Program-made: the position numbers and the translations under genes | In this document: positions 10,888-50,600 of the stretch, piece by piece | How positions within the stretch are numbered: position 1 is the stretch's first letter | Layout: every line of letters begins with the position of its first letter | The notes under the pieces: model-generated | Databases searched by the model: none | The model's input: the letters and a program-made list of their open reading frames with translations, nothing else | What the model was told of the DNA's origin: nothing | IMG/VR virus record: IMGVR_UViG_3300025301_000010 | Coordinates: 1 to 63,010 of that record | Reading direction: 5' to 3' (one strand) | Length of the DNA: 63,010 bases | Source: a virus | Lineage: Duplodnaviria > Caudoviricetes

Positions 10888-13800
10888 GTGGCTCAAACAC
10901 TAGAGGAACTGCGCGTCACGCTGACGGCGACTAACGAGAAGTTTGACAAAGCCTTCCGCGCATCGGACGCGCGTCTAAAGGTCTTCGAGAAGACGATGAA
11001 GCGGCAAGCCGCGCAGACGCGTAAATCGCTCGGTGCCGTGACTGCGGCCGCCACAAAAATGAAGAAAGCCTTTATTGGCTTAGCGAGTTTGGCCGTTATT
11101 AAACGATTTGCGAGTTTTACGAAAGAAGCCTTTGAGCAGACAAACGCGCTACAGGATACGGCGGACAAGATTGGACTTAACGTAGAGTCTTTGCAAGAGC
11201 TCCAGCACGCCTTCTCAACCACTGGGGTTGAAGCAAAAACCGTCAACACAGGACTTCAGCGACTCGGCCGACGCCTCTCTGATTTTGCAACGACCGAAGC
11301 GGGCGCGGCAAAAGAGGCGTTTCTTGCCTTGGGCATTTCCGCAGAAGATGTCCGCACGAAATATTCGACGCTAGAAACCGTCATCCCGAAACTTGCCGAT
11401 GAAATAGCGGGTTTAGCAAGCGACGAGCAGAAACTTTCTGTTGTACAAAAATTGGTCGATAGTGAGGGCGTCGCAATGCTGACGACGTTTTCGCAGGGGT
11501 CGGCTGCGATGGCGAGGCAGCGACAAGAAGCGCGCGACCTAGGCCGAGTATTAGAAGAGGAGTTGACGCGGAAAGCTGCGGCACTCAATACCGCCTTCAA
11601 CGTCGCGGCCGCGGCACTCGACACGCAGTTTAAGCGGGCGCTGATCGAACTGGCTCCGTTTATCAAGCGGTTCACGCAGGGTATCACGGGGCTAGTGTCT
11701 GTTTTTTCGAAACTGATCGGTGAGGTGAAGCGAGTATATAATGAAACTGTTGTACGTAACCAGCTGTTAGCCCTGAAAGCCCAGAAAAAAGAAATAGAAA
11801 ATATAGAAAAGTTAATCGCTCTAAAAAAACTGGAGATTGAAGCGGCCCAGAAGCTGCGAACAGCAGGGATGCGGGAGCGTGTCGGGGCTGCTAGAGGGGT
11901 GGAGCTCGATAAGCTCAAAGACCAGCTGGGGGCGGCTAAGGTCGGATATCAAGAGATTAAGGATATACTCATCGAACTAAACGACGCGTTGGTTGACGAT
12001 ACGGAGGCGCTCGCGAAACACGGCGAGGCGCTTGAAAAAACCAAGGACACAAACGCGGCGAGCGTGGCGAGTCTGGAGAAGGGGACGGCGTTACTTAAGG
12101 CCGAGACGGCAGTGCTCGAAGAAGCGATCGCTCTGGGCTTGACGGCGCGTGAAACTGAATTTCGGTTGACGCGGGCGCGTTTAGTTTCGGCCGCAGCGGT
12201 GGACAAACTGACGGACGCCGAGATCGCTGCTATCGATGCGCGCATGGAAATTGTCCGCGCAAACGAGCAGGTGACGCGCACTTATGACGCGATGGTTGAG
12301 GGCCAGGAGGAGGCGACAGAGGCGGTCAAGGAGGGCACGATTGATCTCGCGAAATACTTCGACCAGGCGGTGGAAGGGATTATGGCGGGCACGCTCCGCC
12401 TGGGTGACTTTTTTAAACAGGCGGGGCAGGCGCTCGCGCTCGATTTCGGAAAGTCGTTTATCATGGGAAAAGGCAAATCGCTAGACGTTCCGCTGAAGGC
12501 AAACGCCCTAGGATTGGTAGGGCCGAACGGAATTGTAGGAGATATCCTGGGCAAAGGGGGGTTACTGGCGGGGACGTCGTTCGGCAAGAACTTTCTTGCG
12601 GGCTGGGGGGTGAATGTCAAACAGATGATGGCCGGAGCAAAGGACATTTGGGCGCTGGCCGGGGTCGGCGATTGGTCGACTATTTTTAAGCTCAACCCGA
12701 GCCAAGGTCTCGGCAAAATGTTCCACGGGCTGGGCAAGGCGGGCGCCGGGTTGTTGGGGTTTGGGCTAGCGGAAGGAATGAAAGGTATCTTCGGCATACT
12801 GGGGTCAGAGGAAGCCGCTATGGGAGGTAAGGTCGGCGGCATGGTCGGCGGCATTATTGGTAGTATTTGGGGCCCGGTAGGGTCTTTTGTCGGGGCCTTT
12901 TTGGGTGACCTTATCGGCTCGGTTTTTGGTAGCCTTTTTGCTCACAAGCCCACGAAGGGCACACAAATCCGGAAGGGTGTCCGTGACTGGCTCAAGGACC
13001 TGGGCGTCGTCTTCGCGCAGGAGCTAGACCGTAAGGATTACTTTTTTGACGAGACAAAAGCGATGCGCGACCGGATGGGATTGCGTGGCGGTTCTGGGTT
13101 TTTGATTGCGAGCAAAGAGGTGCTCGCGCAGTCTGGTGTGCGCGAGGACTTACGACACCAGCTCGTCGCACTTGGAGTCGCGGTGACAAAAGATATGGCC
13201 ATCGATCTCGGCAAAAACTTGGAACAAACAGGCGTCACGTTTGCGAACATGCTGATTGATAATCTGGGCGGCGACGAGAAAAAACTGTCGGCGTTTATTG
13301 CGGACCTCGTGTCAAAGGCCGGGATTGAGCTGGGGGGTCTTGTGACAGAGCTCAACGACGCGATGGCGCGGGGAGCGATTGGGACGGAACTGTACCATGA
13401 GGCGCTACAAGGCGCGCTCTCGCTGTTCCTCGTCGACCTCCCGGCAGGCATTGACGCGTTCGGCATCGCAATGGACAGTATGACCGAGCAGGGGATTTTA
13501 GATCTTGAGGTCTTCGGGGACAAGCTGGCCGAAGTGATCGAAAAGTTCAAAAACCTGCCGCCGCTTTTGGTTCAAATCCGCCAACTGATGATCACGTTAC
13601 GGCAGCAAATGGTTGAGTCGGAGATGGCATTTTTAGCTCGACTTGTGACCATGGGGGTCGCTGGGCAGGGGGACATGATTAACGCGCAAATGCAGCCGAT
13701 ACGCGGCGGGCTCGCGAGCTTCTATGAGCGTTTTAACCTCCAATTTAACCCGACACACCGGCGACCCGAGACGGTGGCTCAGATGCCGTCCAGGCTCGGG

Positions 13801-14934
13801 AGCTTGTCGCCGGACCGTATGCGCGAGCTAGGACACGAGCCGGTTAGTGTGGCCGAGATGATGGCGGCAATTGATGATTTGGGCCGCTTACAAGATCTCC
13901 TCGTTGAGCAGTTTCAGATGCACGCCGAGCAGATCCGCGCAGAGTACGCGCTTAAACGCGAGAACCAGCAGCGAGTGATAAATAATCTGAGGGACGAGCG
14001 GAGCGAGACGGAAAAGCTATATCAGGTGCAAATCGAGGGGCTGCGCGAACGGCTCGCGATTGCGAAGGCGTACGAGCAGCAGGCTGACGCCTTGCAGTCC
14101 ACGCTGACTCAGCTAATGACTGGCGGGACATCGCCGCTCTCGGGACAAGAGCAGCTGTCTTTCTTGCAGTCGCGAGCAGCAACGCTCCGCGCCCAGATAA
14201 CAGGGGCCAGCGACGCAGAGCGCCCAGCGCTTATGGGTGAGCTGTCTACCGTGCTCCAAGGTATGCTCGGTCTCGGCGTCTTTCAGCGGCCATCACCGGA
14301 ACACGCCGCGTTATTTAACGATGTGGTTGCCGAGATAGAGGCGTTACAGCAGTCCGCCCGCGATGAGGCAGATAAGGCGATCGCGATCGAACAGCAAATC
14401 CTTGACACCGAGCTTGCGATGCAGGTCGCGTTGAGTAGCATCGACCAGCAGATCCACCATCAGCAGCTCGCGCTGGAGCGCCTCTCAGGGCAAGAACAGC
14501 AAGCCATAAATAGCGCGAGGGCGGCGACGGTGGCCGCGATTAGCGACCTACGGGATCAACAAATCGAACTCGGCCGTGTGGCGGGATTGAAGCTCAAAGA
14601 CGCGGAAACGGCGATCGTTGAAGAGCTTGAGGCGCTGGGGTTGCCGACCGATCTCGACACGGCGACAATTGCGGTTCTCGATCGGCTCGACGGAACGCTC
14701 GACACTCTCGATACGACGCTCAACACGTTACTGTCGCCCGCGTCGAATAATAACGGCAGCCAGTCGGACGGCGTGACATTTGATATGACCGGGATGCAAA
14801 TATCGGCGACAACTACCGGAAACGCGCAGCAGGACGGCGAGCGTCTAGGCCGCGGCTTTGCAGCTGCGGTGGTGCACGAGTACAGGACGGGCGAGCTAGG
14901 GCGTGTTGTACGCCAAGACATGGAGCGGCACTAG
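10888..14934 (+). CDS. Tape measure protein A (1348 aa)
   Basis: Long helical Ala-rich protein with a Gly-rich hydrophobic segment; follows the chaperones. Confidence 0.92.
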   Translation: MAQTLEELRVTLTATNEKFDKAFRASDARLKVFEKTMKRQAAQTRKSLGAVTAAATKMKKAFIGLASLAVIKRFASFTKEAFEQTNALQDTADKIGLNVESLQELQHAFSTTGVEAKTVNTGLQRLGRRLSDFATTEAGAAKEAFLALGISAEDVRTKYSTLETVIPKLADEIAGLASDEQKLSVVQKLVDSEGVAMLTTFSQGSAAMARQRQEARDLGRVLEEELTRKAAALNTAFNVAAAALDTQFKRALIELAPFIKRFTQGITGLVSVFSKLIGEVKRVYNETVVRNQLLALKAQKKEIENIEKLIALKKLEIEAAQKLRTAGMRERVGAARGVELDKLKDQLGAAKVGYQEIKDILIELNDALVDDTEALAKHGEALEKTKDTNAASVASLEKGTALLKAETAVLEEAIALGLTARETEFRLTRARLVSAAAVDKLTDAEIAAIDARMEIVRANEQVTRTYDAMVEGQEEATEAVKEGTIDLAKYFDQAVEGIMAGTLRLGDFFKQAGQALALDFGKSFIMGKGKSLDVPLKANALGLVGPNGIVGDILGKGGLLAGTSFGKNFLAGWGVNVKQMMAGAKDIWALAGVGDWSTIFKLNPSQGLGKMFHGLGKAGAGLLGFGLAEGMKGIFGILGSEEAAMGGKVGGMVGGIIGSIWGPVGSFVGAFLGDLIGSVFGSLFAHKPTKGTQIRKGVRDWLKDLGVVFAQELDRKDYFFDETKAMRDRMGLRGGSGFLIASKEVLAQSGVREDLRHQLVALGVAVTKDMAIDLGKNLEQTGVTFANMLIDNLGGDEKKLSAFIADLVSKAGIELGGLVTELNDAMARGAIGTELYHEALQGALSLFLVDLPAGIDAFGIAMDSMTEQGILDLEVFGDKLAEVIEKFKNLPPLLVQIRQLMITLRQQMVESEMAFLARLVTMGVAGQGDMINAQMQPIRGGLASFYERFNLQFNPTHRRPETVAQMPSRLGSLSPDRMRELGHEPVSVAEMMAAIDDLGRLQDLLVEQFQMHAEQIRAEYALKRENQQRVINNLRDERSETEKLYQVQIEGLRERLAIAKAYEQQADALQSTLTQLMTGGTSPLSGQEQLSFLQSRAATLRAQITGASDAERPALMGELSTVLQGMLGLGVFQRPSPEHAALFNDVVAEIEALQQSARDEADKAIAIEQQILDTELAMQVALSSIDQQIHHQQLALERLSGQEQQAINSARAATVAAISDLRDQQIELGRVAGLKLKDAETAIVEELEALGLPTDLDTATIAVLDRLDGTLDTLDTTLNTLLSPASNNNGSQSDGVTFDMTGMQISATTTGNAQQDGERLGRGFAAAVVHEYRTGELGRVVRQDMERH

Positions 14935-15690
14935 ATGGGCTATTTGTACGCGTCGACATTTTTGAGCTATACGCCGACCGCCACAACCGCGCATAGCGAC
15001 TATCCCGTAACACGCCTTGCGGATCTTGCCGCGCATCCTTATCTCCGCGCCTGGCGTAGCACAGCGGTGACGCTCACCGACTTAACCTTGGACCTTGGTA
15101 GCGACCAGAGTGTTGGGGGAATAGCGTTGTTCAACGTGAACGCCACGTCGTGCGAACTGGCGTTCGCGACGGCCGCGGGATCGCCGTCCTATACCGGGTG
15201 GGGGCCTAACGCCGCACAGCCTTCGTACCAGATCACTCAAAACACGCCCGGTCCTTATTATAATTTGTGCGTAACCGAGCCGATCACGGCGCGGTATATA
15301 AGGGTGCGGTTTCCTGCCTCGACGGCTCGGCATACAACAGACGCTTATTATTCTGTCGGCTGTATCGTGGTCGTGGGCGCATTCCTCCCGATCCAAACCC
15401 CGCGCGTGGGGATGGTCGAGCGTTTGCAGTCACGATATTTGGAAAACGCACACCTTGTGACTCGCACGGGCGAAGAGTGGAGCGAGGAAGAGTGGGATGC
15501 TATTTTATTGCCTGAGAATAAGGATAGTGGTTTCGCCGTGATGGCGCTGGGAAAAGCGGCGAATGTCGTGATGTTTAGAAACCAAGGGGACCGGGCGGAG
15601 GTCAAGTTGATGCGACGGACCGGCGATATCCAGGTCGCCCATAACGCCACCCACTACACGACCCAGCAGACATGGAGGGAGCACACATAA
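14935..15690 (+). CDS. Distal tail-like protein A
   Basis: First gene after the tape measure; YA..FLSYT..A.....DYPVT.L shared with 43887-44618. Confidence 0.6.
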   Translation: MGYLYASTFLSYTPTATTAHSDYPVTRLADLAAHPYLRAWRSTAVTLTDLTLDLGSDQSVGGIALFNVNATSCELAFATAAGSPSYTGWGPNAAQPSYQITQNTPGPYYNLCVTEPITARYIRVRFPASTARHTTDAYYSVGCIVVVGAFLPIQTPRVGMVERLQSRYLENAHLVTRTGEEWSEEEWDAILLPENKDSGFAVMALGKAANVVMFRNQGDRAEVKLMRRTGDIQVAHNATHYTTQQTWREHT

Positions 15691-15992
15691 TGGCAGATGA
15701 TCGCTCGAATCCCGACAGCGAACGCGATAGTGCGGCTGTCACAATAAACGGACACCAGCCCCGCAAACTTTCTCCGACCGAGCGACTCCGCCTTCAGCTC
15801 GCGCACACGCAAGTGCAGCTTGCGAAAGTGACCGGCGAACGCGACCAGCTGGCCGCACGCATTCGCGCTGCGGAATCGCAGACAATGCTTGAAGAACAGC
15901 ACGCCGCCATCATGGCGGCGCATGGGGTCACAGCTTCGACGCCGTGGGTGTGCGATATAACCAGTGGTGAGTTTGTTCCGAAAGGCGGTTAG
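15690..15992 (+). CDS. Small coiled-coil tail-associated protein
   Basis: Coupled to the upstream stop; positional equivalent of 43637-43870. Confidence 0.55.
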   Translation: MADDRSNPDSERDSAAVTINGHQPRKLSPTERLRLQLAHTQVQLAKVTGERDQLAARIRAAESQTMLEEQHAAIMAAHGVTASTPWVCDITSGEFVPKGG

Positions 15993-15994
15993 GT

Positions 15995-17293
15995 ATGGCA
16001 ACGACGACAAGCCTGGGAATCTCGAAGCCCGCACGCGGCGAGACAGGTTGGCACACGCTGTGGAACGCGAACGCGGACCTTTTAAACGGCCTATTGGTCG
16101 GGACGAGCAGCTCGCTTTTTATTGCCGCAGCTCGCGTCGGAGTCGGTCACACAACTGCTACGTGGGGCCGGTTTGCTGCCCACGAAAATAGCGCGACGGT
16201 AGCGACGGCGGCTCTCAGTCAAGGCAACTCGAGTGGCAACGTGCTTGAGCTAAACAATGGGAGTTCGGATTTAGCAGGGAACCTGATGGTCGTGACGGGA
16301 GCGGGTAAACTGGGGATCGGGACAACCGCGCCTGACGCGCTCCTGCATGTAGAAGAGGGTGCCGGGTCATTCAGTTGGACCCCAGATGCCGGGACGATGG
16401 CCATCATCCAACGAAACGCATCGACGGGCAATGGGGTCGCGCTGTCTCTCATCAGTGGCACAGGCGGTGACTGCGCCCTTAACTTCGGAGACTCGTCAGA
16501 TGAGAATGATGGTGCAATCCTGTATGACCAGGCCTCCAACGTCCTCTCGTTCCGGGTTAATGCCGCCACGAGGATGACGCTTAACCAGGACGGAAAACTC
16601 GGCGTTAATGAAACAACGCCAGATGCGATGGTCGATATCGTGCCGACTGGCACCGGTGTGATTTCGCTGCTTGTCGATACGGCGGCGAGCGCTACAGCGA
16701 AGAGTCAGGAGTGGCACTACAACGGCAGCTCACGCGCATGGGTGAAACAGACAGCCGCCGTCAGCGAATTGAGGTTCGATCCTATCGACATCGCTGGCAC
16801 CGTGCCTGGCCCACTGCTTTACCTGGACCGTAATGTCGGCACCGAGGTCGGGGCTAATACACCTGCGCCGGGTGCTGTAGGTTTTGTGACGGACGCGAAC
16901 GTCGTGCACTACATCTGGTGTGACACCGGGCTGCTACGTATGCACACAGTGCAGCCGACATATAACACACGCGAGCATGGCGACGAGGTCGGAGGGCAGT
17001 CCTCATATTTAGGCGCAAAGAATATTATCCGACAATGGGGGGACCCGACGGACGCGCTTGAAGCTGTTCTTGATACGGGGGTTTACGATTTTACCTACAA
17101 GGACGGAAAATATAACTGTGAACAATTTACCGGAATTGTAACGGATTGGGCGCCGTGGGCGGGAAAAGAAAAAACCGAAGATTGCCCCCACGGGCGTCAG
17201 CTCAATATGGTCAACGTGACCGGATACCATACGTTAGCGATTCAAGCGCTCTCAAAAAAGATTGAAGACTTGGAACGACGACTCGCCAGCTAA
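15995..17293 (+). CDS. Tail fibre/spike with C-terminal S74-type intramolecular chaperone
   Basis: G.LGIGTTAP...LHV repeats; SS...K cleavage-like site and terminal AIQAL...IEDLE coil. Confidence 0.8.
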   Translation: MATTTSLGISKPARGETGWHTLWNANADLLNGLLVGTSSSLFIAAARVGVGHTTATWGRFAAHENSATVATAALSQGNSSGNVLELNNGSSDLAGNLMVVTGAGKLGIGTTAPDALLHVEEGAGSFSWTPDAGTMAIIQRNASTGNGVALSLISGTGGDCALNFGDSSDENDGAILYDQASNVLSFRVNAATRMTLNQDGKLGVNETTPDAMVDIVPTGTGVISLLVDTAASATAKSQEWHYNGSSRAWVKQTAAVSELRFDPIDIAGTVPGPLLYLDRNVGTEVGANTPAPGAVGFVTDANVVHYIWCDTGLLRMHTVQPTYNTREHGDEVGGQSSYLGAKNIIRQWGDPTDALEAVLDTGVYDFTYKDGKYNCEQFTGIVTDWAPWAGKEKTEDCPHGRQLNMVNVTGYHTLAIQALSKKIEDLERRLAS

Positions 17294-20441: not shown

Positions 20442-20450
20442 GAAATAATC

Positions 20451-21151: not shown

Positions 21152-21170
21152 CCGGTGAGACGGCCCGCGG

Positions 21171-21678: not shown

Positions 21679-21776
21679 GCCACCCACAACAAAAGGGGTC
21701 AGACATGGGCAAGCTATTAAGCGGAAGATCAAGAGCCCGGGGCACTCCCGGCATCCGAGGAGGAGGAGTAGTTCCC

Positions 21777-21965
21777 ATGCGGAAACCGAAAGATTACGAG
21801 CTGATTCGGTGTCCCGAGGCACGATCTAAGCGCACGCATAAACCAGCGCGGGTCTTCGAGGACGGGACGTTCGGTGTCTTGGGGCAACACGGTCATGGGC
21901 ATGCGGTGCCGCGCTGTCCCTATTCAAAACTGCCTGTCCGGATCATTCCACAGGAGGGCCGATAA
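21777..21965 (+). CDS. Small basic Cys/His protein
   Basis: GGAGGAGGAG RBS before ATG 21777; stop abuts the next ATG. Confidence 0.6.
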   Translation: MRKPKDYELIRCPEARSKRTHKPARVFEDGTFGVLGQHGHGHAVPRCPYSKLPVRIIPQEGR

Positions 21966-22658
21966 ATGGAGAGAGGGCAGTACGGAGAGATACAGAGGGG
22001 GACGATACGGCCGCAGACGCTCAAAACCTTGGACCGGCTGTTGCGGGGGGCTAGCCGATCGGAGCACATCGATGAACACGGCGGCTGGGTTTTCGATTGC
22101 GACTTCGACAGGCACGGCCGCGGCCACGCGACGAATTACGACTATTACGGGTACGGACGGGACTGCCATAGTCGTCGGCTGCTAGCTGTCATACAGATAC
22201 GCAGATTTACCCGGCAACGGAAAAACGGGTGGGGCAATCAGCGGAAATCGTATTTCTTGATCGGACGCAATGAGGACGAAACGTATTTCGCGCACCCGGT
22301 CAGCGCGGGCGTCATCCATAGCGCGATCAAATCCGGTCGCAATGTTGTTCGCGCCTGCCAGGATTGGATTTTCGGCGGCGATTATGGCCGCATGGTGCGC
22401 CAAGGCGACTTCGCGTTTCTGCCCGTACGGAAGCCGGGCGCAGATGCGCAGTGTGTCGCACCAGCGCGCATCTTGCAGGAAAGCCACTATCTTATTGCCG
22501 ACGAGGCGCGAAAAAACGGGCACCTCTACGCGAAGAACCCGAGCCTGTATCATCTGCCGGGGACGCATCCTGACCTCGAGAATCTTCCGGGATGGTGGCG
22601 GCTCATAGAGGGCCGACGCGGGCGCTTTTGGTCTTTCGCCGCGCCGACAGTGGATTAG
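21966..22658 (+). CDS. Uncharacterised phage early protein with an RQGD motif
   Basis: 230 aa with good RBS; RQGDFAFLP...SH...H..TH pattern. Confidence 0.7.
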   Translation: MERGQYGEIQRGTIRPQTLKTLDRLLRGASRSEHIDEHGGWVFDCDFDRHGRGHATNYDYYGYGRDCHSRRLLAVIQIRRFTRQRKNGWGNQRKSYFLIGRNEDETYFAHPVSAGVIHSAIKSGRNVVRACQDWIFGGDYGRMVRQGDFAFLPVRKPGADAQCVAPARILQESHYLIADEARKNGHLYAKNPSLYHLPGTHPDLENLPGWWRLIEGRRGRFWSFAAPTVD

Positions 22659-22731
22659 GTGGGGAGTCTTAAAAAAACGAACCCCGAGGATCGCCCGTAC
22701 GGGACGATCTCGGGCCACCCTATGTCTAGGC

Positions 22732-22986
22732 ATGGGCACGAATTGGGGTAATATGCGGGTAGCGACGAGTTTTGGTTGTGAGAGCTGCGGGCAAATTAGT
22801 CCGGCCTGTAGCAAAGGGGTGTGCAGTGTATGCGGATCGGCCGCGGTATACTGTCTGGCGCGACGGTCAGCCGCCGAGCAAGACCATTGGGACCGACAGC
22901 AGCGATACCACCGGCGCCGTGCGTACAGCAAAAGGCGGCGTCAAATCCTGCTGCCGGAGGCGCATCCGCGCGAGGAGGAGAGGTAA
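22732..22986 (+). CDS. Small Zn-finger-like protein
   Basis: CESC...C...CSVC; chained with the next ORF. Confidence 0.5.
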   Translation: MGTNWGNMRVATSFGCESCGQISPACSKGVCSVCGSAAVYCLARRSAAEQDHWDRQQRYHRRRAYSKRRRQILLPEAHPREEER

Positions 22987-23223
22987 ATGGTTTTACATTA
23001 CGGGTGTGGATGCCGCACGACGACACGGCGGACAGTAGGCGTGGTGTATGTCCCGCGCGTGTGCCAGCTCCACGAGCTGCCCCGTGTGACCGTGGAGAAG
23101 AAGTGTCAGCGGTGCCACAATTGGCATGCTGGCCGCTGTCGGGGCGTACCGATCGAAGTCGCGCTGATCGTGATCGGGTTGGTCGCGCTGATGGCTGCCT
23201 CTATCGTCGCCTGGACAATATAA
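22987..23223 (+). CDS. Small Cys-rich protein with C-terminal TM helix
   Basis: GAGGAGAGG RBS; CQRC..WH..RC motif and a hydrophobic tail. Confidence 0.6.
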   Translation: MVLHYGCGCRTTTRRTVGVVYVPRVCQLHELPRVTVEKKCQRCHNWHAGRCRGVPIEVALIVIGLVALMAASIVAWTI

Positions 23224-23237
23224 CGCCCGCGGAATTC

Positions 23238-23266
23238 TTGACGGCGGTAGGCGGGTCGGGTACTAT
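23238..23266 (+). promoter_or_regulatory. Sigma70 promoter for replication operon A
   Basis: TTGACG-17 bp-TACTAT, followed by a GC hairpin leader at about 23286-23323. Confidence 0.75.
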
Positions 23267-23361
23267 GGGGGTCAACCTTCTCTCCGCGGCGGGGGCCACT
23301 CTTCTCCTGGTGCCGCCCGCCGCACCCCCCCCTTGCCGGACAGGTAGAGTGCCTACAGACT

Positions 23362-23892
23362 ATGGGGGGCAACAAAAACAAAACTGTATCACGACCGGTG
23401 GCCGCCACAGCGAGTGGCGAGGCGGTGGCGAGCCTGGTATACCTACAGGCGCGTATGGCCGACCGCGCCGCCGAAAGGCTACTGGCTGCCGATTTGTTGC
23501 CGCCGGACCTGCCACACTCCCAATCCCACTCGCACGGGCGGTCGGCTGCTCCGATACGTGGGCCGCGGCTCACGGGGCATGCGGCAGGGCCGGAGAAAAT
23601 CTGCTGGGCGGTGCTTATGCGGGCGTTTGACGACCTCGACCGAGGGGGCCGGACAGGGGCGGCAGTCGGGACAAAACGGCAAAATGTACTAGCCGCACGC
23701 GATGCGCTGCGGTGGGTCTTACGGCCAGACCTGCCGTGTTTATTTTCGTTTTCAGAGGTTTGTTCTACGCTCGGCATTGACGTCACAGCAGCGCGCGCCT
23801 ACGCGCGGGACGTAGTGGCGCCCATTGTCGACCAGATGTACCCGCCGCACGCGACGGGGCGAGACGTGAGGAGGCGATATGGATTGGGATGA
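23362..23892 (+). CDS. Hypothetical protein, W/AVL..A...W......F..VC..LG family (copy 1)
   Basis: PEKICWAVLMRAFDDL...ALRWV...FSFSEVCSTLGID; similar to 34293-34793 and 34784-35146. Confidence 0.65.
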   Translation: MGGNKNKTVSRPVAATASGEAVASLVYLQARMADRAAERLLAADLLPPDLPHSQSHSHGRSAAPIRGPRLTGHAAGPEKICWAVLMRAFDDLDRGGRTGAAVGTKRQNVLAARDALRWVLRPDLPCLFSFSEVCSTLGIDVTAARAYARDVVAPIVDQMYPPHATGRDVRRRYGLG

Positions 23893-24289
23893 GTTCGTGG
23901 TCGAAGAAAAGAAGTACATGAGCACTGACGATGTCCCGGACGTCGGCGAAGTGGTCACGGTCACAGAGTGTGGCCGCGAGGAGATGGCTAACCGCAAGGC
24001 TGAGCAGGACCCGCGTGCGCCCGCGTACGTGACGAAACTGGTCTTGCATTTCGCCGAAAAAACGCCGGGCTTTGTCTGCAATCGTACACAAACGCGCGCG
24101 CTACAGCGGATCGTCGCGCCGAGTCCTGACACCGATGCGCTGATCGGACGTCAGATAATCCTGCGCCGCGTACCACTGCCGCAGGCATACAACGGGCATA
24201 GTCATACAGTCGAGATCGTGGCCGTGCCGTCGAGCCTCCCAGCCGCCCCGCCGCCGAGCGCACCTACAGCAGCGCCGGTGCCGCGCTGA
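23879..24289 (+). CDS. Putative ssDNA-binding or annealing accessory protein
   Basis: KY....D, K.VL.F....P..CN.T, DTD..IGR.I.L pattern typical of genes next to phage exonucleases; GAGGAGG RBS. Confidence 0.55.
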   Translation: MDWDEFVVEEKKYMSTDDVPDVGEVVTVTECGREEMANRKAEQDPRAPAYVTKLVLHFAEKTPGFVCNRTQTRALQRIVAPSPDTDALIGRQIILRRVPLPQAYNGHSHTVEIVAVPSSLPAAPPPSAPTAAPVPR

Positions 24290-24375
24290 GGCGACGTCGA
24301 CGCGGTCGGGGGTGACCCGCAGGACATCATTCAGGGAGACTGGCCTATAGTCCAACGGAAGAGGAGGAGGTCGAG

Positions 24376-25062
24376 ATGAAGTGGGACGAATTCACTCGGA
24401 CATTAAAAGTTCACCAAAAGTACCACATCGGCGGTCAGCAGGTGCCGTCCGTCACAACAGTTTTGCAAAATATCGGGTGGAAGACGGCTGGCTTGCTACG
24501 GTGGGCCGAGCGGATACACGCGGAAGACCGCGACCAAAACCAAGAACGGGACGCGGCTGCCGCCGTAGGGGCCACTGCGCATTATTTGGTGCAATGCTGG
24601 GTCAATGAGACGGAGCCTGACCTATCGAGGGTCGCGCCGATCCATGCGGAATTCGCGATGCAGGCTTATGCCAACTTCCAGCGGTGGGTGGGGCAAACCG
24701 AGGTGCAGCCGATAGCATCCGAGGTTAAAGTCTTGTCGGCCCAGTATCGCTATGGTGGGACCGCGGACCTGATATGTCAGATCGACGGCGTGCGGACGCT
24801 CGTCGACCTGAAAACGTCCGGCGGGGATACCGTGTACGCCGAAAGCAAAATCCAAGTGGCCGCCTATGCTCTCGCCTACAACGAGGAGCACGACGACGCG
24901 CCGGTTCGACGTCTGTGTGTGCTACAGATGGGCCGCGAGACGGGCGCCTGCGTCGCCCACTTTTTGTCGCCGGAGGAGTGGGCCGCCGGACAAGACGCGT
25001 TCCTGCGCGCGCGAGACTTGCACGAGCTACGCAAGACCCTCAACAAGAAGGCCCGCCGGTGA
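24376..25062 (+). CDS. PD-(D/E)XK exonuclease
   Basis: PSVTTVL, G...H, ASE, YGGTADL, LVDLKTS and Q..AYA motifs. Confidence 0.88.
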   Translation: MKWDEFTRTLKVHQKYHIGGQQVPSVTTVLQNIGWKTAGLLRWAERIHAEDRDQNQERDAAAAVGATAHYLVQCWVNETEPDLSRVAPIHAEFAMQAYANFQRWVGQTEVQPIASEVKVLSAQYRYGGTADLICQIDGVRTLVDLKTSGGDTVYAESKIQVAAYALAYNEEHDDAPVRRLCVLQMGRETGACVAHFLSPEEWAAGQDAFLRARDLHELRKTLNKKARR

Positions 25063-27224
25063 CGCCGGAGCGGTTTTTGGGGCTTGTGCGAGACCACGTC
25101 CCAGGGCTGACCGCGACAAAAAAAGAGGGTGAATATCTTGGCACGGTGCCGTGGCGGCCGGACACGCATCCTTCCTTAGCCGTAAATGTTACTAAAATGT
25201 GTTGGGTTGATCGCGGCACGCAAGACGCCGGTGGCTGGCTCAAATTTTGCGAGCGCGTCGGCGTGTCCGCTGATGATCTGCGCCGCGATGATAACTCGCA
25301 ACCGCAACCGCAACCGCAACCGCAACCGCGCACCGCGAGGGATGATCTCGACAAACTCCTTACCGACCGTAAAAAGCAGGGAGAGGCGGGGCTTCTTCCA
25401 AAGCCGCAACCGCGGCGGAATGGGAACCTGCCAGGGGCGACGATCGTCGAGACCTACGACTACACCGACGCGGCGGGGGCGCTGGTGCATCAGGTCGTGC
25501 GCCTGGAGCCCAAAACGTTCAGGCAGCGGCAATCCGATGGGAACGGGGGTTGGCTGTGGCATGCGCGCGGAGTCGAAACAGTCCCCTATCGACTGCCCGA
25601 GCTGTTAGACGCGGACAGGGTCTACATATGCGAGGGCGAGAAAGATTGCGACCTATTGCACGATCTCGGGTTCGCTGCCACTACGAACCCGATGGGCGCG
25701 GGCAAATGGCCGGAGCATTTCGCGCCGCATTTCCTGGACAAAGAAGTGGTATGTTTGCCAGATAACGACAGCCCAGGGCGTGCCCATATGCAGCAGGTCG
25801 CGGCCGCGCTCGAGCCGGTCGCACGTCGCGTGGTAGTGTGTACGCTACCGGGGCTTGCAGAGAAAGGGGACGTCGCTGACTTTTTGACCTCATACGGCGA
25901 AGAGGAGTTGCGCGAACATGTTGCGCTCGTGCTCGCGTATACGCCCACGGTAACGGTTGAAGCCGCGCCCCCGACGGGGCCGCCGGACTTGCTATGTCCT
26001 GACACAGTATGGTCTGGGCCATACTATAGCGCTGTAGCCGATACGCTCGGTGTCCGGTCGTGGGGGGTCTGGCTAGGGGCAACCGTTGCGGCTAGCGCCT
26101 GGCTCGGTCGCGCGGTGCGCACGCTATACCACGGGCCGCTACATTGTAACGTGTTTGGCCTGCTGGTGAGTGGGACCGGCGCAGGCAAATCTATTTGCAC
26201 AGAGACAGCGCGGGCGTTGCTCCCCCCAACGGTTCGGGCCGGAGACTCCCCACAGTCAGGCCAAGCGCTCGGCAACCTCATCGCGGACGTGGAGCGTGAC
26301 GGCGGCGAGATTATCGTAACACCGCAACCGGCGACGATGATCTGTGAAGAGTGGTCTAAACTAGCCCGACTCGGGAAAATGTCATACTCACACCTGTTAG
26401 AGGACATTAATAAACTGTATGACTTCCCCGTCGACCTAGAGCTAAACCGCTCCGATCGGGATAAGAAAGGTGGGCGTATCGTGTATCCGAACCCGGAGCT
26501 GACGATCTGCGCGACGACAACGACAGGACTGTTCCGCGAGGAGACAGACCGGCGGTTCATTCAGGGCGGGTTTATCAATCGTTTTTTGATTTTGCCGGGA
26601 GAGCAGCGGCGGTGGGCCTTCCACGATACGGGCCGGGCGTCGATGGACTATGCAAGGCTACCACCGATCCAACAGGCACTCGGGCCGCCGCCGGTCTGGC
26701 AGAGCCGAACGTCGATCTGGGCACACTATACACCCGACGCGGCCGAACGGCTGGTGGAATGGGGCAAGCGCTTCGAGGCCGAGATAATGAACGCCGTAGA
26801 CCAGCCGCCGGAGCTGGACGCATACAAACGCCTGCACGTCTATGCGCATAAGCTGTCGATGCTGTACGCGGCGCTCGACAAGCGGGATACGATAACCGTC
26901 GCCGACGTAGAATGCGCCGTGAGCGTGGTAGATACCTCCTGGCTGTGGTTGGATTTTTTGCTCGAAGATGTGGGCGTCCCAGAGCCGCCGTGGGTCGTAT
27001 ACGAAATGGAGCTCGCGGCAAAAGTGCGCCACAAGGTGGTGTCGCGTCCCGGCGAGTACACCCGGCGCGAGCTAAAAAAGCGCATACGGGGCGACAGCAA
27101 AAAGATCGGCCAAATTATAGAAACGCTCATCGAGGAGCACGACCTCATAGAAGACGTCAACCCTGCGCGCGGACATGCACTGCGCTTATACCCCCCGAGC
27201 GAGGGGTCAGCTGACAGGAGCTAG
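25059..27224 (+). CDS. TOPRIM primase fused to a DUF3987-like P-loop helicase
   Basis: EGEKD, PDND..G and GD..DF TOPRIM motifs; GTGAGKS Walker A, ICEE and GGFINRF; GTGA overlap start. Confidence 0.88.
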   Translation: MTPERFLGLVRDHVPGLTATKKEGEYLGTVPWRPDTHPSLAVNVTKMCWVDRGTQDAGGWLKFCERVGVSADDLRRDDNSQPQPQPQPQPRTARDDLDKLLTDRKKQGEAGLLPKPQPRRNGNLPGATIVETYDYTDAAGALVHQVVRLEPKTFRQRQSDGNGGWLWHARGVETVPYRLPELLDADRVYICEGEKDCDLLHDLGFAATTNPMGAGKWPEHFAPHFLDKEVVCLPDNDSPGRAHMQQVAAALEPVARRVVVCTLPGLAEKGDVADFLTSYGEEELREHVALVLAYTPTVTVEAAPPTGPPDLLCPDTVWSGPYYSAVADTLGVRSWGVWLGATVAASAWLGRAVRTLYHGPLHCNVFGLLVSGTGAGKSICTETARALLPPTVRAGDSPQSGQALGNLIADVERDGGEIIVTPQPATMICEEWSKLARLGKMSYSHLLEDINKLYDFPVDLELNRSDRDKKGGRIVYPNPELTICATTTTGLFREETDRRFIQGGFINRFLILPGEQRRWAFHDTGRASMDYARLPPIQQALGPPPVWQSRTSIWAHYTPDAAERLVEWGKRFEAEIMNAVDQPPELDAYKRLHVYAHKLSMLYAALDKRDTITVADVECAVSVVDTSWLWLDFLLEDVGVPEPPWVVYEMELAAKVRHKVVSRPGEYTRRELKKRIRGDSKKIGQIIETLIEEHDLIEDVNPARGHALRLYPPSEGSADRS
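25299..25328 (+). repeat. (CAACCG)5 microsatellite encoding a QP linker
   Basis: Five perfect hexamer copies inside the primase gene. Confidence 0.95.
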
Positions 27225-37787: not shown

Positions 37788-37796
37788 CGGATTCCT

Positions 37797-43886: not shown

Positions 43887-44618
43887 TTAGATCAATTCTA
43901 AAAATTCCATTGATCCACTTTGCATGGTGCTGCCGAGACTAATACTCTCCTCTGCCGACATCCGTCGTCCGTAAAAGACGGGTAGCTGTGATGGCGAATC
44001 CAGATCCACGATCATAATTTTGGTGGCCGGGCTGATTGCACGGAGGGCATCAAAATCGCCCGTTCCTGCCGCATATTCGACCTCATCGCTAAATTGCAGT
44101 GTGCGGTAGGCATCGCCGGGAATCAGGTCTTGTACGTCCGTTCCGGCCTCTAAAACGGGATCTATGACCTTGATCGTTGCCCCTGCCAGCATCCCCCGGC
44201 TCAAGACATTCAATTTGCCCGTTTCGACACATAAAATCTGACCGATTTTGAAGTACCCCGCACTATCGATAGGCGTGGCAACGCTGACCACCACCACCAT
44301 CGTATTCGATGCGCTGACGGTTTGCAGGAGGGCATTGCCATAGTGGGAGGTGAGGGCATTCTTCGTCAACGTCTTCGCGGTGCCAGCGAGCGTCATCGCC
44401 GTGAAATTCGTGCCGAGAACGGCGGTCAAGACAATCGTTTTCGCAGCCCCGAAATCCAATGTCAGCGTCTTTGTGCCTGACGCATTAAGAGACCGATACT
44501 GCTCTAAAATCGGATTGGCCGAATCGCTGTTCAGATTCGTGACGGGGTAGTCCGCAGAGACGGCATCACTGGCTGTCACCGTATAGGACAAAAATTCTGT
44601 CGCGTAGCGTAGGTCCAT
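43887..44618 (-). CDS. Distal tail-like protein B
   Basis: Follows the tape measure; homologous to 14935-15690. Confidence 0.6.
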   Translation of the reverse strand: MDLRYATEFLSYTVTASDAVSADYPVTNLNSDSANPILEQYRSLNASGTKTLTLDFGAAKTIVLTAVLGTNFTAMTLAGTAKTLTKNALTSHYGNALLQTVSASNTMVVVVSVATPIDSAGYFKIGQILCVETGKLNVLSRGMLAGATIKVIDPVLEAGTDVQDLIPGDAYRTLQFSDEVEYAAGTGDFDALRAISPATKIMIVDLDSPSQLPVFYGRRMSAEESISLGSTMQSGSMEFLELI

Positions 44619-47600
44619 TAATGTCCTTTCTTCAGGACGCCGCGCAGCCGTCCGCTCTCCATCGACCTGATGATACCATCTTCGATTTGCCGGTACACCT
44701 GCTGCCCGACGGCTTTTCCATTTGCGGCACCAGAAACATTGATTGTGGGGGCGATGGTCAGATGCAGCGGCCCAGGCACCGACTCTCCGACGGGCGTAAC
44801 CTGTACATGCTCTGGTCCCCGTTCCGCGACCTGAAACCAGGTTGGTCGTGACACCATACCGCTGTACCCTGATGCTGCGGACGTGAATCCCTGCCAGTTA
44901 TTCCAGTTATTCCAGTTATTCCCACCCGTCTGGTTATTCCCGTTCGGCGCGGGGGGATTAGTCAGGTCGGTAAGGTGGATGTTCAGTGTTTCAATCGTCT
45001 CGTCGAGGCTATTAAGAGTACCTTCCAATTTTTGATTCATGTCCTGCTCTGCCAAGAATCTCTGCTGAGATTTAATTTCAATCCCCCTCCAGACCTGCAT
45101 TTCGCGGATGTGGAGTGCGTGCAATCTCGCAACTGTCTCCCTACGCATCTGATCCACCGCAGCGGTAGACCGATCCTGCGCGGCTTCGATAGCGATCTTA
45201 GCAGCGCTATTAATACGGTTCGCCTCTTCTTGCAAACTCGTGATCAAATCGGTATCTGCTTCGATGCGATTATCGATGGAAGTCAGGGTGTTGTTCATGT
45301 CCCGTTCGATGTTCCGCTGGGCCACCGCCGCCGCCAACGCCTGGGTTTGGAGGTCTTCCAGTTCTTGCAGCGTGGTATTGGTCTCGTCGGTCAAGGCAGA
45401 TCCTTGGTTCCGCGACATTTTCAACTGGGCGACAAGATTGGCCGCGAGCTGGTCGAACAATTCGGGTTGGTCTTCCGCCCCTGCCCCTGCCAGCGCCGTG
45501 CGGAGTGAGGCTTCCTGGAGTTGGAGCACCCCGAGCCGTTCGCCGGTAGTGAACGCACTCGATCCGGTGGCAATGGTGCGGATCATATCGCCGATCTTAT
45601 CAGCAGACTGTTCAAAATTTTTCGCGAGTGCCTTAGCTTCTTGCGCGAGCTGGGCGATCTCAGCCCGTTCCTCGCGTGCCAGTGTAAGGCGGTCATTCGC
45701 CGCCTTGACCAACTCTGCGTTGGCTTCTAAGTCGGCTTCCCGTCGGTCATTGATACCGTCGATCTCGTCTTGCAGCCGACGCTGTTCCGCTGCGGCACGC
45801 GCCTGGAAGAGATCAACTTCCGCCTGTCGCATATTAGCAAACGCCTGTGCCCAAGCGTGTAACCCCTCCATCGAACTTTGCTCTAGATCCCACACCCCGC
45901 CCTCGTGCAGGTTCAGACCACTATGTATGCCAAGTTGGGAGCTAGTACGAGCATGTTTTTGCTGCTGAAGATCAAGGGCGCTGCCAGCACCGATAGCCAC
46001 GAGATTTGCGGCAAACGCGAGCTGCACGTCGATGATCTGCTGCTTGATTGCGACGAGCGCGTTGTTCAGCACGTTCATCTCAGCACTCGCGGCCCCAATC
46101 GTGTTAGGCAATAAATTAGCCGCTTCCAGCAGGGCGTACAGTTGCTCCGCTGCGATCCCGATTCCGCTGGCGAGATCCTGAAATGCATCAGAGGACATAT
46201 CAATCGGCTTGGTAAAGTCAAAATCTTCAAACAACCCAGCCAGGTTCTCCTCGATGAAGGTCGCCATCGCCTTTTCTTGCAACGCCGCACGGAAGACTTC
46301 TCTGAATCCGGCCTCTGCGGCGGCGGCGACATCCCCACCTTTTAATCCGGCTTCCAGACCTTTGGCGAAGGCGGCACTCATCCCCTTCAGTGCCTGGGCT
46401 GACTGTTCCATCGCCCGTGTGAGTTCTTCTTCAATTTGATCTGCGTCCAACTCAATATTTTGGATACGGAGAGACGTGATCCCGATATCGTGCAGTGCGC
46501 CAATAGCGTCTTCAATATTGAGATCACCCGAACGGATACGATCTTCCAAACTCGCCAGATCCTCATCAAGCAGTCCAGCGGTTTCCCCCGCTTCCCTAAA
46601 GGCGTCCGCAAGATAGCGGTTCGAGAGTGCTGTCGCATCGATCAGCGGGTTGAATTTCGTGGCAATCTCGATGCCCCCCTTGAGCATCTCACTCAAGAAC
46701 AGCATCTCATTCCCTGACCGCCCGGTCTCTTCCAGCTCTTCGCGGAATTCCGCGAGATTGGTTTCCTCCGCAAATTTGTTAATTTGCTCGACCACTGTCC
46801 CAATCGTGAACCCCATCTTTTCCGCGAGTTCGAGCACCTTCTCATTGGCTTCTTCCATCGTCAGACCCGCTTCGAGGAATCCGACCTGGAACTGATTCGT
46901 AAAGCGCTTCATGGTGCCGAATACATGCTCAATCTTGTCGTCCAGATCCACATACATTAACGAGAGTGCCGCCAAGCCGCCTTGTTGTTCGGCGAACTCG
47001 ACGTCCGCCTGTTGATGCCGAATCGTCAGACTTTTGCCGCCCTGCGGATCGACACCGGAGAGGCCGATTTCTTTTGCGAAGGCCCGAATCTCGTCTTTAT
47101 CTTGCTTGATCCGTCCTGGTGCCAATAGAGCCCCGAGCAGTTCCTCCATCGCAAATCCAATGAGGAACCCAAGGCCGGGGATAATGTAGTTCGCCAACTG
47201 TCCAGCTAACTGCCCAAAGGTGTTGGAGAGAAATGCAATGATTGGTTTTGATATAGCACTAATGGACATCGCCATCGTACCAACCGTAGCACCGATATGA
47301 CCGCCAGTTCCTTTATACCCGGCGAGGCTGGCAATGCCACTAACCGCTGCCCCGCCCATTCCTGCACTGCCCCATGGCGTGACACCACCGGCAGCGGCAC
47401 CACCGGGATTAATAATATTACCCTGCCATCCAGGCTTCGGAGCACCCCATTGCACGTTTTGCATGCTCTGTGCATACGCTGATGAGCCACCACCAGCACC
47501 GCCCCAAAAATTCTGCATGTCCGACACGCCAATACCGCCCCAACTGCCAATGCCGCCGGTGCCCGACGCAAAGGAACCCGGTGCGCGAGTTCCACTACGA

Positions 47601-50600
47601 ATAGCCTCCCGCATAGCCGGATCAACAAACGGCATGTTGTTCCAATGCTGACTGCTGCTCCACTGAGGAGCGGCAGGACCACCGCCTGCGCCTCCGCCTC
47701 CCCAGGGCGGTGTCCAGACACCCGCACCACCACCGCCACCCGCGCCACCACCGCCGCCGAACAGTTTCCGAATCCCTTTGATAAAATTATCTCCGAACGC
47801 TTTGGCCCCTGCTATTCCACCATCTTTAAACATACCCAGAAGCCCGGTCTCTCCGAATAAGTCCTTAAGATTTGCGGTAAACCCCGCATCAAATTCAACC
47901 TGCTTCCCGAAAAGAAACGAATGGGCGAACTGTTTAACCATATTTTTGCCAGCCATCTCGAACACGTCGCCCAATTCTTTAACGCCACTTTCGATAGACT
48001 CAAAAGACTTGTCAAAGATCTTCACGAGGTCAATAGTGTTCCTTTCCAGAATGGCGACATGATCCTGCACATCCTTATTGAGTTTCTTATTCAATCGCGT
48101 TTGCCGCAGCATATTTTGTATTTGGTGCTCTTGGTACTTCTTAATTATCCTCCCCTTCTCGTCCTCAACTTCCATACGGCGTAATGACATCTCGTACAGC
48201 CGCATATCCAATTCAAGTTGCCATTCCTTGGCATTATTGATGTCATTTTCGGTGATGAGCATCTCCATCATAATGGCGTTTTCCTGCAACGTCGCCTCCA
48301 TCTCATAGGCTTCCTCTAACTTCCGCCTCCGCAATGTCTCGCTATTTTGCTTCTTTAATAGCCCCGTATACGCAGCCGTCCTTTGTGCCTTTTGCTCATC
48401 CGTAATCTTCCATGCCCCAAAATTAGCAATGGTTGCTTCCTCTTCCACTCTTGCCTCTATTAGTGCCGCTCCATATAGCCCGATTTCTCTAGTCTGTTTT
48501 ATTATGCCTTGCGTTCGCTTATTCCAGGCGGAAATCGCAGCTTTTTCCGATTTTGTTAATTCCTTGTTCGCCTTCCCGGTTTCGCCCAATAGTTTGAACA
48601 TCTTCTGTAGGTTTTTCTCTAAGTCCTCCAGCGTTCCAGGGGGAAGTGCTCCTGGGATCTTTTTCAGTTCTTCCCATATGTTCGTCAGCTCTGTCCGGAA
48701 ATCCTCGAGAGCCTCTGCAGCAAAGGCATTCTTCACGTTCTTACCAGTTTCCGTTAATTTTCCCTCTAGAATGTCTATCCTTGCTAAAGTTTCTTTTACT
48801 TCCTTCTCAGTCATCCCCAGAGACTCCGCAGGATTAAATCCTTGCCTGAACTGTGACCTAATTGCGGGGAACCATGCTACAAGATTTGTCCAAAATTCTT
48901 TGGTTTTTTGGAGACTATCTAATTTGAGCGACAGCTCTAGCGCCCCCTTCTCTACCTGGGCCATGATCTTGATCACGCCGTGCCATGCTGTTTTCGCCGC
49001 CGCCACGATAAGTTTCCCAAACGCCACAAAAGCCGCGTAGGTATGCCCTATCGCCACTACCAGATGATTCAGTCCCCCCATATTCGCAGTCATTGTCATA
49101 ATCATGGCTGTGAACTTGATAATAAGCGGCGTAAGACCCACAAGCCCTTCCACCAGTTCCCCCGCTATTACTCCTACTAAATCTCCGAATTGTATTATCA
49201 ACTGCGCTATTGCTGCCGATAACTTCTTCATATCCTCTTCTGGTATTGTAAACGCGGACATCAGCCCTGCGAAGCCGAAAGTCTCTTGTGCAGTTTTATT
49301 GCTATCGTGCCATCCCGCCGGTAGCGCCACAGCCTCCCATTTACCCGCTGCCTTTGCCGCTGCCTTTTCCTCATCCGACATCCCAAACTGTCGCTGCAGC
49401 TGGAAAAATGCCCCTAATTCATCCCGCACCCCGATGATAATCTGCTTGAGTGCCTGAAACGGCAGGGTTAAGTCATCCCCGAATATTAAATTCCGAAAAA
49501 CTTTCATCGCGTCTAATAGCTGTGTCCAGGTATTCGCCATATCGAATGACGCCGCCTGGAAAGCTAGGGCTTGCCTATTCATCTCTCGAATCAACATGCC
49601 TTGGTTTTTATAGATACGTAACCGTTTGATATCGATGCCCATCGTTTCCAGAATCGTCTGACCCTGTCTTCGATTTAACTCGAAGATCTGACGAATTTCA
49701 GTCAACATCTTCTCGCCGTGCAGCCCTAACATTTTAGACATCTGCACGAGATTGGCAGTCAATATGATCCGTTCCCGGTCAGTGGCGATCTGCTGTGACC
49801 CAAAGGCCAACACCCGCTGTGAGGCGTCCAGTAGCTCCTCTGCCGTCCCGGCAACCCGTGTCGATAAGAGCAGCACTTCCCGCTGGAATGCAGCCGCTCG
49901 CCCTAAGTTAGCCTTATAGACTTTTGTGGCCTCCCCTAATGAAGCGAAATGCTCCGTTGTTTTGGAGGCATTTCCCATAATAGCGGCCATTGCGAACCTG
50001 GTCCGTTCTAAAGTGTTAAGGAAGCTGAATGTTTCCTTCACCATCTTGGTCATAAACCGTAGGGCCATTTGCAACTGCCGAACATACAGTCGAATAATTC
50101 CCGTTATGAGCTTCCAGGCCCCGAACCCAGCGCCAATTTTCAGCCCCGTCTTCAGGAGCCCACTCATCGTGACGGCTTCCTTATTGAATTTTTTGACCGA
50201 CTGGGTGGTTTGTTTTATTTTGGTATTGAATTTCCTTGTTTCCGTGGTGCCTTTTTTCGTCTCCTGCCATAATTGTCGGTGGGCATTTCGCAGATCTTTA
50301 TTCTTCGCCTCTAATCGCGCCAATATCGCGGCTTGCGCCCGGTACGCCCCATTCGACTGCAATGTGACCCGTCGCATTTGAACTGCCAGCTCCCGCTCCG
50401 TCTTCTTGCTGCTGAGGGCACTCTTTATTTCTATTTGGAGCTTCCGTTGGAGAGCAATCTCTTTCTGAAGTTCCGCCTTCCCCTGCTTCTTTGCCTTAAC
50501 GGCCTCACTCTCAACCCGTTGGACTTTCTGAGTCGCCGCCTGCACACCCCCCATCGTTTTGATGAGTTGGCGGAACAGTGCCTCAACATCTTTGAGTTCC

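Follow-up and report, generated by a model that had tools for sequence, protein, structure and literature searches.

IMG/VR virus record IMGVR_UViG_3300025301_000010 (Duplodnaviria; Caudoviricetes), analysed as one window over its whole length of 63010 nucleotides (nt), contains in a single contig two complete siphovirus structural modules that converge on each other (open reading frame (ORF) listing, PHROGs and Pfam scans). Module A spans 5-21151 on the plus strand and module B 62993-35484 on the minus strand; terminase genes are found at both ends of the record. Both modules end with the same succession of genes, i.e., tape-measure protein (TMP), post-TMP protein, small coil protein, fibre, a protein of about 140 amino acids (aa; p140), hub and a protein of about 131 aa (p131). 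A C5 DNA methyltransferase gene (27237-28298, plus strand; PHROG 363, 3.7e-63) is located between the two modules. It is probable that the record consists of two marine siphophages joined by the assembler inside this methyltransferase gene, present in both, and that their homologous tail tips were partly exchanged later. Phage A would correspond to about 1-27.5 kb of the window and phage B to about 27.2-63 kb, its replication arm and its structural arm converging at 35.5 kb.

The tail-tip cassettes and their divergence

In module A the cassette is encoded on the plus strand by TMP A (1348 aa, 10888-14934; 13 PHROG families, of which 10 carry the name TMP, the best match at 3.2e-26), the post-TMP protein (251 aa, 14935-15690), the small «coil» protein (106 aa, 15672-15992, placed by position only), fibre A (432 aa, 15995-17293; PHROG tail fibre matches at 1.7e-5 and 5.1e-5), p140 A (138 aa as in database cluster P0002, 17310-17726), hub A (901 aa, 17736-20441; AlphaFold2 (AF2) fold and Pfam fn3) and p131 A (131 aa, 20451-20846). 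The counterparts in module B, all on the minus strand, are TMP B (2008 aa, 44618-50644; assigned by size, position and homology to TMP A), the post-TMP protein (243 aa, 43887-44618), the small coil protein (77 aa, 43637-43870; ORF and translation), fibre B (678 aa, 41617-43653; match to PDB 8ojn), p140 B (145 aa, 41175-41612), hub B (1125 aa, 37797-41174; BLASTP to hub A and Pfam fn3) and p131 B (132 aa, 37389-37787). The ORF coordinates thus bear out the common gene order reported by the first-pass annotation. The post-TMP gene stands directly 3' of the tape-measure gene in both modules (14935 after 14934 in A, abutting at 44618 in B). The length of the tape measure sets that of the tail; with TMPs of 2008 vs. 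1348 aa, the two tails are expected to differ by about half in length despite their shared tip parts.

All proteins left of 28.3 kb were compared with all proteins right of it (BLASTP, E<1e-3). Seven high-scoring segment pairs (HSPs) were obtained in five gene pairs, all of them cassette genes, and nothing else. The head, neck and tube genes of A and B do not match each other (all-against-all BLASTP, same threshold) and their PHROG families differ, in agreement with the different head and tube chassis claimed at first; each phage would build these parts from unrelated gene families. Of the seven tip genes announced as shared, five pairs are matched, but the coil and fibre pairs have no reliable match. 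The coil pair has no significant BLASTP similarity (24% in global alignment), and the fibre pair has a single 42-aa HSP (E 5.8e-4 in a small search) that is absent from the all-against-all comparison at E<1e-3 (28% in global alignment). Judged from their sequences, the coil and fibre pairs appear syntenic, with a homology that is not demonstrable.

The five matching pairs differ in their similarity. TMP A and TMP B share 38% identity over 93 aa and 24% over 425 aa (27% in global alignment). Their homology is detectable from about aa 480 of TMP A (nt ~12330), i.e., it begins inside the tape measures as had been claimed, and the motifs quoted in support are located at nt 12337/12403/12454 in A and 48037/47971/47920 in B. 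The post-TMP pair reaches 44% over the N-terminal 78 aa (30% in global alignment, about 50% at the N-terminus). The values are 76% over 144-145 aa for p140 (79% global) and 67% over 129 aa for p131 (66% global). For the hubs, the BLASTP alignment of the N part extends over 681 aa with 31% identity, and that of the C part over 374 aa with 44%. Sliding windows along the global alignment give about 33% for hub-N (A 1-650) and 59% for hub-C (A 663-901, B 858-1125), locally 67-76%; the contrast first noticed between a low hub N-terminus and a high last FN3/C-terminal domain with high small partners is confirmed. Hub B carries about 200 residues (B 658-857) more than hub A. Three inverted repeats in the DNA (84% over 238 nt, 73% over 187 nt and 71% over 165 nt) coincide with p140, p131 and hub-C. 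Overall the similarity is patchy, with sharp steps at gene or domain borders (sliding windows).

The AF2 model of hub A (33-row alignment) has a mean predicted local distance difference test (pLDDT) of 83, the last 150 residues being at 50-70. Its top Foldseek match is T5 pb3 (7zhj_b, E 1.6e-24); the DT57C baseplate comes next, before the lambda tail tip complex (8k35_A, E 8.6e-18), T1, JBD30 and Chi, and then hubs of the VgrG/gp27 type. VIA-align gives Z 20.6 to the Milano hub 8fqc_C1 (314 aligned residues, root-mean-square deviation 3.7, residues 2-516), Z 17.6-18.6 to Mu gp44 entries, Z 16.6 to T5 pb3 over 645 aligned residues (model 1-744) and Z 14.6 to T4 gp27 (1k28_D). FN3 structures fit model residues 657-754 (Z 12.8-13.1), and Pfam fn3 is matched by hub A at 3.3e-6 (663-736) and by hub B at 5.7e-7 (860-938). 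The domains of hub A are a gp27-like hub (about 1-520), an extension to ~650, FN3 (663-745) and a C-terminal domain (746-901). Residues 628-740 of hub B have PHROG tail fibre or virion structural matches, and hub B has no match below E 0.1 among PDB sequences. The structure prediction proposed earlier for the tip was run for hub A and yields a hub fold of the pb3/gpJ type: by its predicted structure, hub A is a baseplate hub of the T5 pb3 / lambda gpJ kind.

PMC10038345 describes the hub trimer of T5 as closing the tube, its C-terminal FN3 domains as starting the central fibre, and receptor binding as pulling the hub open. By analogy, hub A may have the same trimeric, tube-closing and opening role. 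Both tails would finish with a homologous tip of this kind, in which (i) the tape measure would fill the tube; (ii) the post-TMP ring protein and the trimeric hub would close it; (iii) the FN3 and C-terminal domains would extend from the hub; (iv) the side fibre, p140 and p131 would complete the device.

The names given to the other tip proteins hold less well. «Dit-like» suits the post-TMP proteins by size and by their position directly after the tape measure, but no Pfam, PHROG or PDB sequence match names Dit for either of them (nothing below E 0.1 in PDB), and both are Dit by position only. The post-TMP protein of A has weak F5/8 type C matches below the Pfam cut-off, and its Atlas neighbours are unnamed viral clusters. 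The label of S74 fibre is not retained: Peptidase S74 is found neither in the two whole fibres (Pfam, E<=0.01) nor in their C-terminal 133 and 119 aa (Pfam, E<=10), and no S74 entry among PDB sequences is matched by either fibre (phmmer, E<=1, sequence level only). By eye, the C-terminal ends of the fibres may resemble S74 domains. A fibre segment of PDB 8ojn is matched by residues 280-430 of fibre B (E 5.3e-8) and 184-244 of fibre A (E 0.0033). No Pfam or PHROG family is found for fibre B, for either coil protein, for TMP B or for the post-TMP protein of B. The N-terminal shaft of fibre B contains four tandem 108-nt (36-aa) repeats at 43040-43471, 67-70% alike; fibre A has no such array.

No named family is found for p140 and p131 (Pfam and PHROG; also Atlas for p140, and for p131 a profile against PDB with nothing below E 0.1). 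The AF2 model of p140 has a pLDDT of 52 and its Atlas matches are unnamed viral clusters with TM<0.4; its C-terminal tail is invariant in all six family rows. In the p131 family, C42, C58, C65, H9, H49, H60, H66 and H78 are invariant in 6/6 rows, and these three Cys and five His suggest that p131 may be a small metal-binding virion or assembly protein. Its Pfam matches are sub-threshold only (Fer4_12 at E 0.17). The complex prediction of p131 with the C-terminal part of the hub scored 0.00, a result that counts neither for nor against binding.

The p140 and p131 families are small, with four or five 90%-identity clusters each in 5.8 billion proteins. Among the five p140 clusters (P0001 being 97% identical to B), p140 A and B are mutual nearest relatives. 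For p131, on the contrary, A is 84% identical to P0162 and B 85% to P0161, the 67% between A and B being the lowest value of the family matrix. With hub A as query, P0007 (59%, full length), P0008 (45%) and P0009 (37%) score above hub B (80-100% of length); with hub B as query, P0009 reaches 523 bits, more than the 444 bits of the protein that represents A's cluster. Thus for hub and p131 other homologues are closer than the partner, which counts in part against the first-pass interpretation, but for p140 the partner is closer (76% vs. 57-63% to the other three lineages). The wider hub family counts 105 representatives at E<=1e-30, a number that rises to 2322 at E<=1e-3.

The p140, p131 and hub homologues are all on short contigs from environmental sources. 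Isolate phages have no megablast match to cassette A or cassette B; by tblastn, hub A has one FN3-only match among them (a Microcystis phage, 14% of the query) and hub B none. No relatives of p140 or hub A were found in IMG/VR. In the 50 IMG/VR loci retrieved through TerL A or TerL B, the sole match to a cassette gene is a weak one to TMP (L006), and a hub alignment search of GTDB genomes found nothing. The relatives of TerL A, at 38-58% identity, are in metagenome-assembled genomes labelled Rubrivivax, Clostridiaceae, Oscillospiraceae, Pirellulales and Terriglobales, i.e., in at least four phyla, so that no host can be named.

The age of the similarity was addressed through 4-fold degenerate codons encoding the same residue in both copies, the identity at third positions being compared with the compositional expectation. 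Identity does not differ significantly from expectation for TMP (40/178 sites, expected 0.27), the post-TMP protein (9/36, 0.31), fibre (18/64, 0.26), hub-N (42/124, 0.30) and hub-C (25/76, 0.26). It is above expectation for p140 (32 of 58 sites, 0.25; p=9e-7) and, with p=0.03, for p131 (21 of 44, 0.33). Given the saturation of synonymous sites in most of its genes, the cassette would be, taken as a whole, mostly old shared inheritance. Since p140 is unsaturated among saturated neighbours, its A and B copies clearly appear to have a more recent common ancestor, pointing to a later exchange between the lineages; p131 possibly has a more recent common ancestor too and would, less clearly, have moved in the same way. 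The repeated exchange of the adsorption module that had been proposed is thus reduced to two time layers at most. Two points weigh against the exchange: the p140 family comprises so few clusters that a closer relative of A may be unsampled, and the C-terminal tail of p140, being strictly conserved, may bring some extra constraint on the nucleotides.

It is rather unlikely that no exchange followed the split, i.e., that the whole cassette descended vertically from one tail ancestor, its uneven similarity reflecting purifying selection, with heads swapped or with a direction that is not knowable. Such descent would account for the synonymous sites of TMP, post-TMP protein, hub-N and hub-C, for the high conservation of p140 and p131 across all known family members (57-85%), and for hub and p131 partners that are not nearest relatives. 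However, selection on protein sequence does not give the synonymous pattern of p140, whose flanking genes are saturated. The saturation of synonymous sites is a cheap and reusable test to separate old shared ancestry from a later swap.

The probable join inside the methyltransferase gene

Part of 19001-29000 is found in 21 public runs (k-mer index), each labelled as marine or seawater metagenome, and 14 of these contain 92-98% of the sampled words of this stretch. Logan contigs of four runs (X1, X5, X15 and X16) were aligned to 18501-38500. Three runs are informative; X16 gives short contigs, mostly 90-95% alike, plus the conserved methyltransferase core. The data are contigs, not raw reads, with one mean depth per contig, and uncovered A-side parts in X15 and X16 were not taken as evidence of absence.

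Phages A and B co-occur in the same marine runs. The depths at 18.5-21.7, 22.0-27.3 and 33.5-38.5 kb are 28.6, 26.1 and 31.4 in X1, and 18.8, 15.4 and 14.2 in X5. In X15 both A-side stretches have only scattered short contigs at 2.5-3.5x, and the B side is at 8.3-9.4 from 27238 onward. The A:B depth ratio is thus about 0.9 (X1), 1.2 (X5) and 0.3 (X15), i.e., the two sides differ in abundance across the three runs. The stretch 21966..27224 follows chassis A in depth (26.1 vs. 28.6 in X1; 15.4 vs. 18.8 in X5).

The alleles of the methyltransferase gene locate the likely join. In X15 a RecE/RecT contig of 4570 nt, at B depth, begins to match the window at 27238, the second base of the start codon (which opens at 27237), and its preceding 346 letters are unlike the window. 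This contig has 29 differences from the window; those listed are in 27272-27551 and none is listed after 27551. X1 and X5 contain two alleles at 27272-27299, the depths of which in X1 (26.1 and 29.8) agree with those of A and B, respectively. To the right of the gene, X1 has a depth of only ~31, that of B alone, and this flank therefore follows the B allele only. Along the window, the A allele gives way to the B allele where two contigs overlap by 30 nt (27552-27581), and the methyltransferase ORF is a hybrid of two alleles with a switch at about this place. The statement that the pairing is not a random join has therefore to be given up, public contigs indicating an assembly path from A into B inside the shared gene. 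Loose contig ends are found at 27238 and 28149-28234. The methyltransferase core (27839-28505) has contig depths of 200-767 and many loose ends, and is thus a conserved repeat in these communities. PMC5610896 names highly similar regions in co-existing viruses as a cause of chimeric contigs.

A small early gene, hereafter gene X (21688..21970, ORF 21705-21965, plus strand; ORF and contig layout), is, beside the methyltransferase gene, a second near-identical stretch common to A and B. An X5 contig of B-like depth (15.7) runs from 21941-21970 through ~496 other letters to 27238-27329 with the B allele. Phage B thus has its own copy of gene X, followed after 0.5 kb by the methyltransferase; in phage A this interval is taken up by 5.3 kb of other genes. 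At B-like depth (7.5), an X15 contig matches 21816-21970 except for 8 differences and departs from the window thereafter. Loose contig ends are found in gene X at 21688 and 21720 among X1/X5/X15, and at 21970 in X1 alone. Gene X is a branch point of the assembly graph, and phage B has it too, outside the window.

Starting at 28280 or 31501, contigs of X5 and X15 continue without interruption past 38500, and the convergence point at 35.5 kb is crossed by unbroken contigs in X1, X5 and X15; the replication arm (28.3-35.5 kb) therefore belongs with chassis B. The GC content is 0.58/0.61 left of the methyltransferase and 0.54/0.55 right of it. Terminal repeats are absent from the record. A join at ~29.5 kb, guessed from the GC drop, was rejected: the RecE-like gene (28536-29492) and RecT (29486-30210) are contiguous and contigs run through them. 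A third arrangement of the two shared genes is seen in JGI contig L058 (1-4392), which matches the 3' end of the methyltransferase (28041-28276) at 97.5% nt, then has ~3.1 kb unlike the window, then, in the same orientation, a copy of 21777-21977 at 82% nt. A scan of JGI metagenomes with the methyltransferase gave 12 loci, none near-identical to the A or B copy.

Several observations weigh against an assembly join. The evidence consists of contigs with mean depths; the A:B ratios of X1 and X5 are near 1, so that it is mainly X15 that speaks for two independent sides. In X1 the stretches 27552-28184 and 28179-30212 have a depth of ~40, which is neither B alone nor A plus B. The X1 and X5 contigs carry, after 27801, a 4-nt insertion that would shift the frame and that the window and the X15 contig lack; the exact source path is therefore not reproduced. 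No continuation of phage A past the methyltransferase, no DNA upstream of TerL B and no independent assembly of either phage were found.

A single real replicon of at least 63 kb with two structural modules, e.g., a cointegrate formed by homologous recombination of co-infecting A and B in the methyltransferase, is nevertheless highly improbable. A shared gene able to support such recombination does exist, the two sides are of similar depth in X1 (28.6/26.1 vs. 31.4) and X5 (18.8/15.4 vs. 14.2), and the words found in 14 of the 21 runs come from a stretch that spans the join. However, a k-mer index says nothing on linkage; the right flank in X1 and X5 is at the depth of the B-type allele alone and not of the allele sum; the B side of X15 is about three times its A side, and its B contig departs from the window upstream of 27238. 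The GC shift at the join and the size of the larger source contigs found for chassis relatives (38-43 kb) point in the same direction. There is an even slimmer chance that the join is real in part of the population, as an A x B cointegrate with two virion modules formed via the methyltransferase; if so, the methyltransferase hotspot, gene X and the tip genes would be a route by which unrelated chassis trade adsorption parts on one marine host. Two prophages tail to tail in a bacterial chromosome, of which the window would be a piece, are hardly credible: tandem prophages do occur in bacteria and the two modules do converge, but this virus record measures 63010 nt in all, with terminase genes at both ends, and contains no tRNA gene and no integrase match among roughly 70 ORFs scanned against PHROGs, and the contig depth and allele evidence weighs here too.

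With two phages joined by the assembler as the preferred reading, the exchange of p140 together with the shared methyltransferase and gene X would indicate a continued genetic contact of the A and B lineages, implying that their hosts overlapped at some time. The earlier proposal of a same or closely related host is kept in this form, as p140 exchange fits a shared or overlapping host at some time, but no host is named. A 63-kb record with two virion modules is not to be read as one genome, and host, size and gene-content statistics drawn from it would be wrong.

Other genes of the two phages

Chassis A (5..10887, plus strand) is defined by PHROGs matches and comprises TerS (5-520, 5'-open), TerL (498-2222), an HNH endonuclease (2219-2734), the portal (3112-4422), the major head protein (4878-6620), adaptor and neck genes (7150-8569), a major tail protein of 155 aa (9614-10081) and two genes in chaperone position (10100-10887). 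After p131 A, a 109-aa ORF (20822-21151, plus strand) with one hydrophobic segment followed by a charged coiled tail has a holin- or spanin-like look. PHROGs and Pfam scans revealed no endolysin in the phage A portion. The A-side early and replication genes (21966..27224, plus strand; PHROGs) include several of no known family and a primase/helicase (24774-27224).

The replication and recombination arm of phage B (28259..35487, plus strand; PHROGs/Pfam) contains, beside the RecE-like exonuclease and RecT, DnaD-like, DnaB, Mom-like and RusA genes. A SpoVG-like gene (30194-30523, plus strand) lies between RecT and the DnaD-like gene (Pfam SpoVG E 1e-5, below the curated cut-off).

Chassis B (50658..62993, minus strand; PHROGs/Pfam) belongs to families unlike those of chassis A. 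It comprises TerL (61455-62993), a cell-wall hydrolase (Hydrolase_2, SleB-type; 59699-60208), the portal (58230-59696), the scaffold (57491-58243), the major head protein (56205-57314), neck genes, the tail terminator (53321-53779), a Phage_tube_2 tail tube of 401 aa (51759-52964) and genes in chaperone position. The hydrolase lies between TerL and portal, an unusual site for a lysin. ORF 29901-30263 (minus strand) was considered as the missing TerS of B and rejected, having no family match and overlapping RecT on the opposite strand.

Comparison with known systems

The findings will not surprise phage biologists, and their main value is the correction of the record. They also give a small, marine-only example of a T5/lambda-type tip common to unrelated siphophage chassis, including the unnamed p140 and the Cys/His-rich p131.

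Compared with chimeric contigs of viral metagenomes, as treated in PMC5610896, the record is alike in that co-occurring viruses are joined through a highly similar region. It differs in that this region is a single conserved methyltransferase gene instead of strain-level similarity; outside it, the two genomes have only the tip cassette and one small gene in common.

As for the fibres, one segment of A and B is alike in the Bdellovibrio fibre proteins (PDB 8ojn, deposited as «cell wall surface anchor family protein»), the remainder having no named family.

Compared with the tips of T5 (hub pb3, distal tail protein pb9, side fibre pb1, collar p132) and lambda (gpJ): (i) the predicted fold of hub A matches T5 pb3, DT57C, the lambda tail tip complex, T1, JBD30 and Chi, although its identity to solved hubs is only 9-14%; (ii) the hub gene lies 3' of the tape measure and the tip module includes a fibre gene of its own, but here the coil, fibre and p140 genes stand between the post-TMP protein and the hub; (iii) pb4, pb5, p132 and lambda gpL/K/I have no detectable homologue here, and p140 and p131 are without named family; (iv) FN3 follows the hub core in T5 pb3 (described in PMC10038345), the same order as in both hubs here.

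Mosaicism of adsorption modules between tailed phages with different heads is well known. The two cassettes are like such exchanges in that a homologous tip is carried by chassis without detectable similarity and in that the similarity is patchy; they are unlike them in that most of the cassette is anciently diverged (24-33%, saturated) and only one small gene has a clear later exchange. A homologous tip cassette on unrelated chassis is ordinary phage mosaicism.

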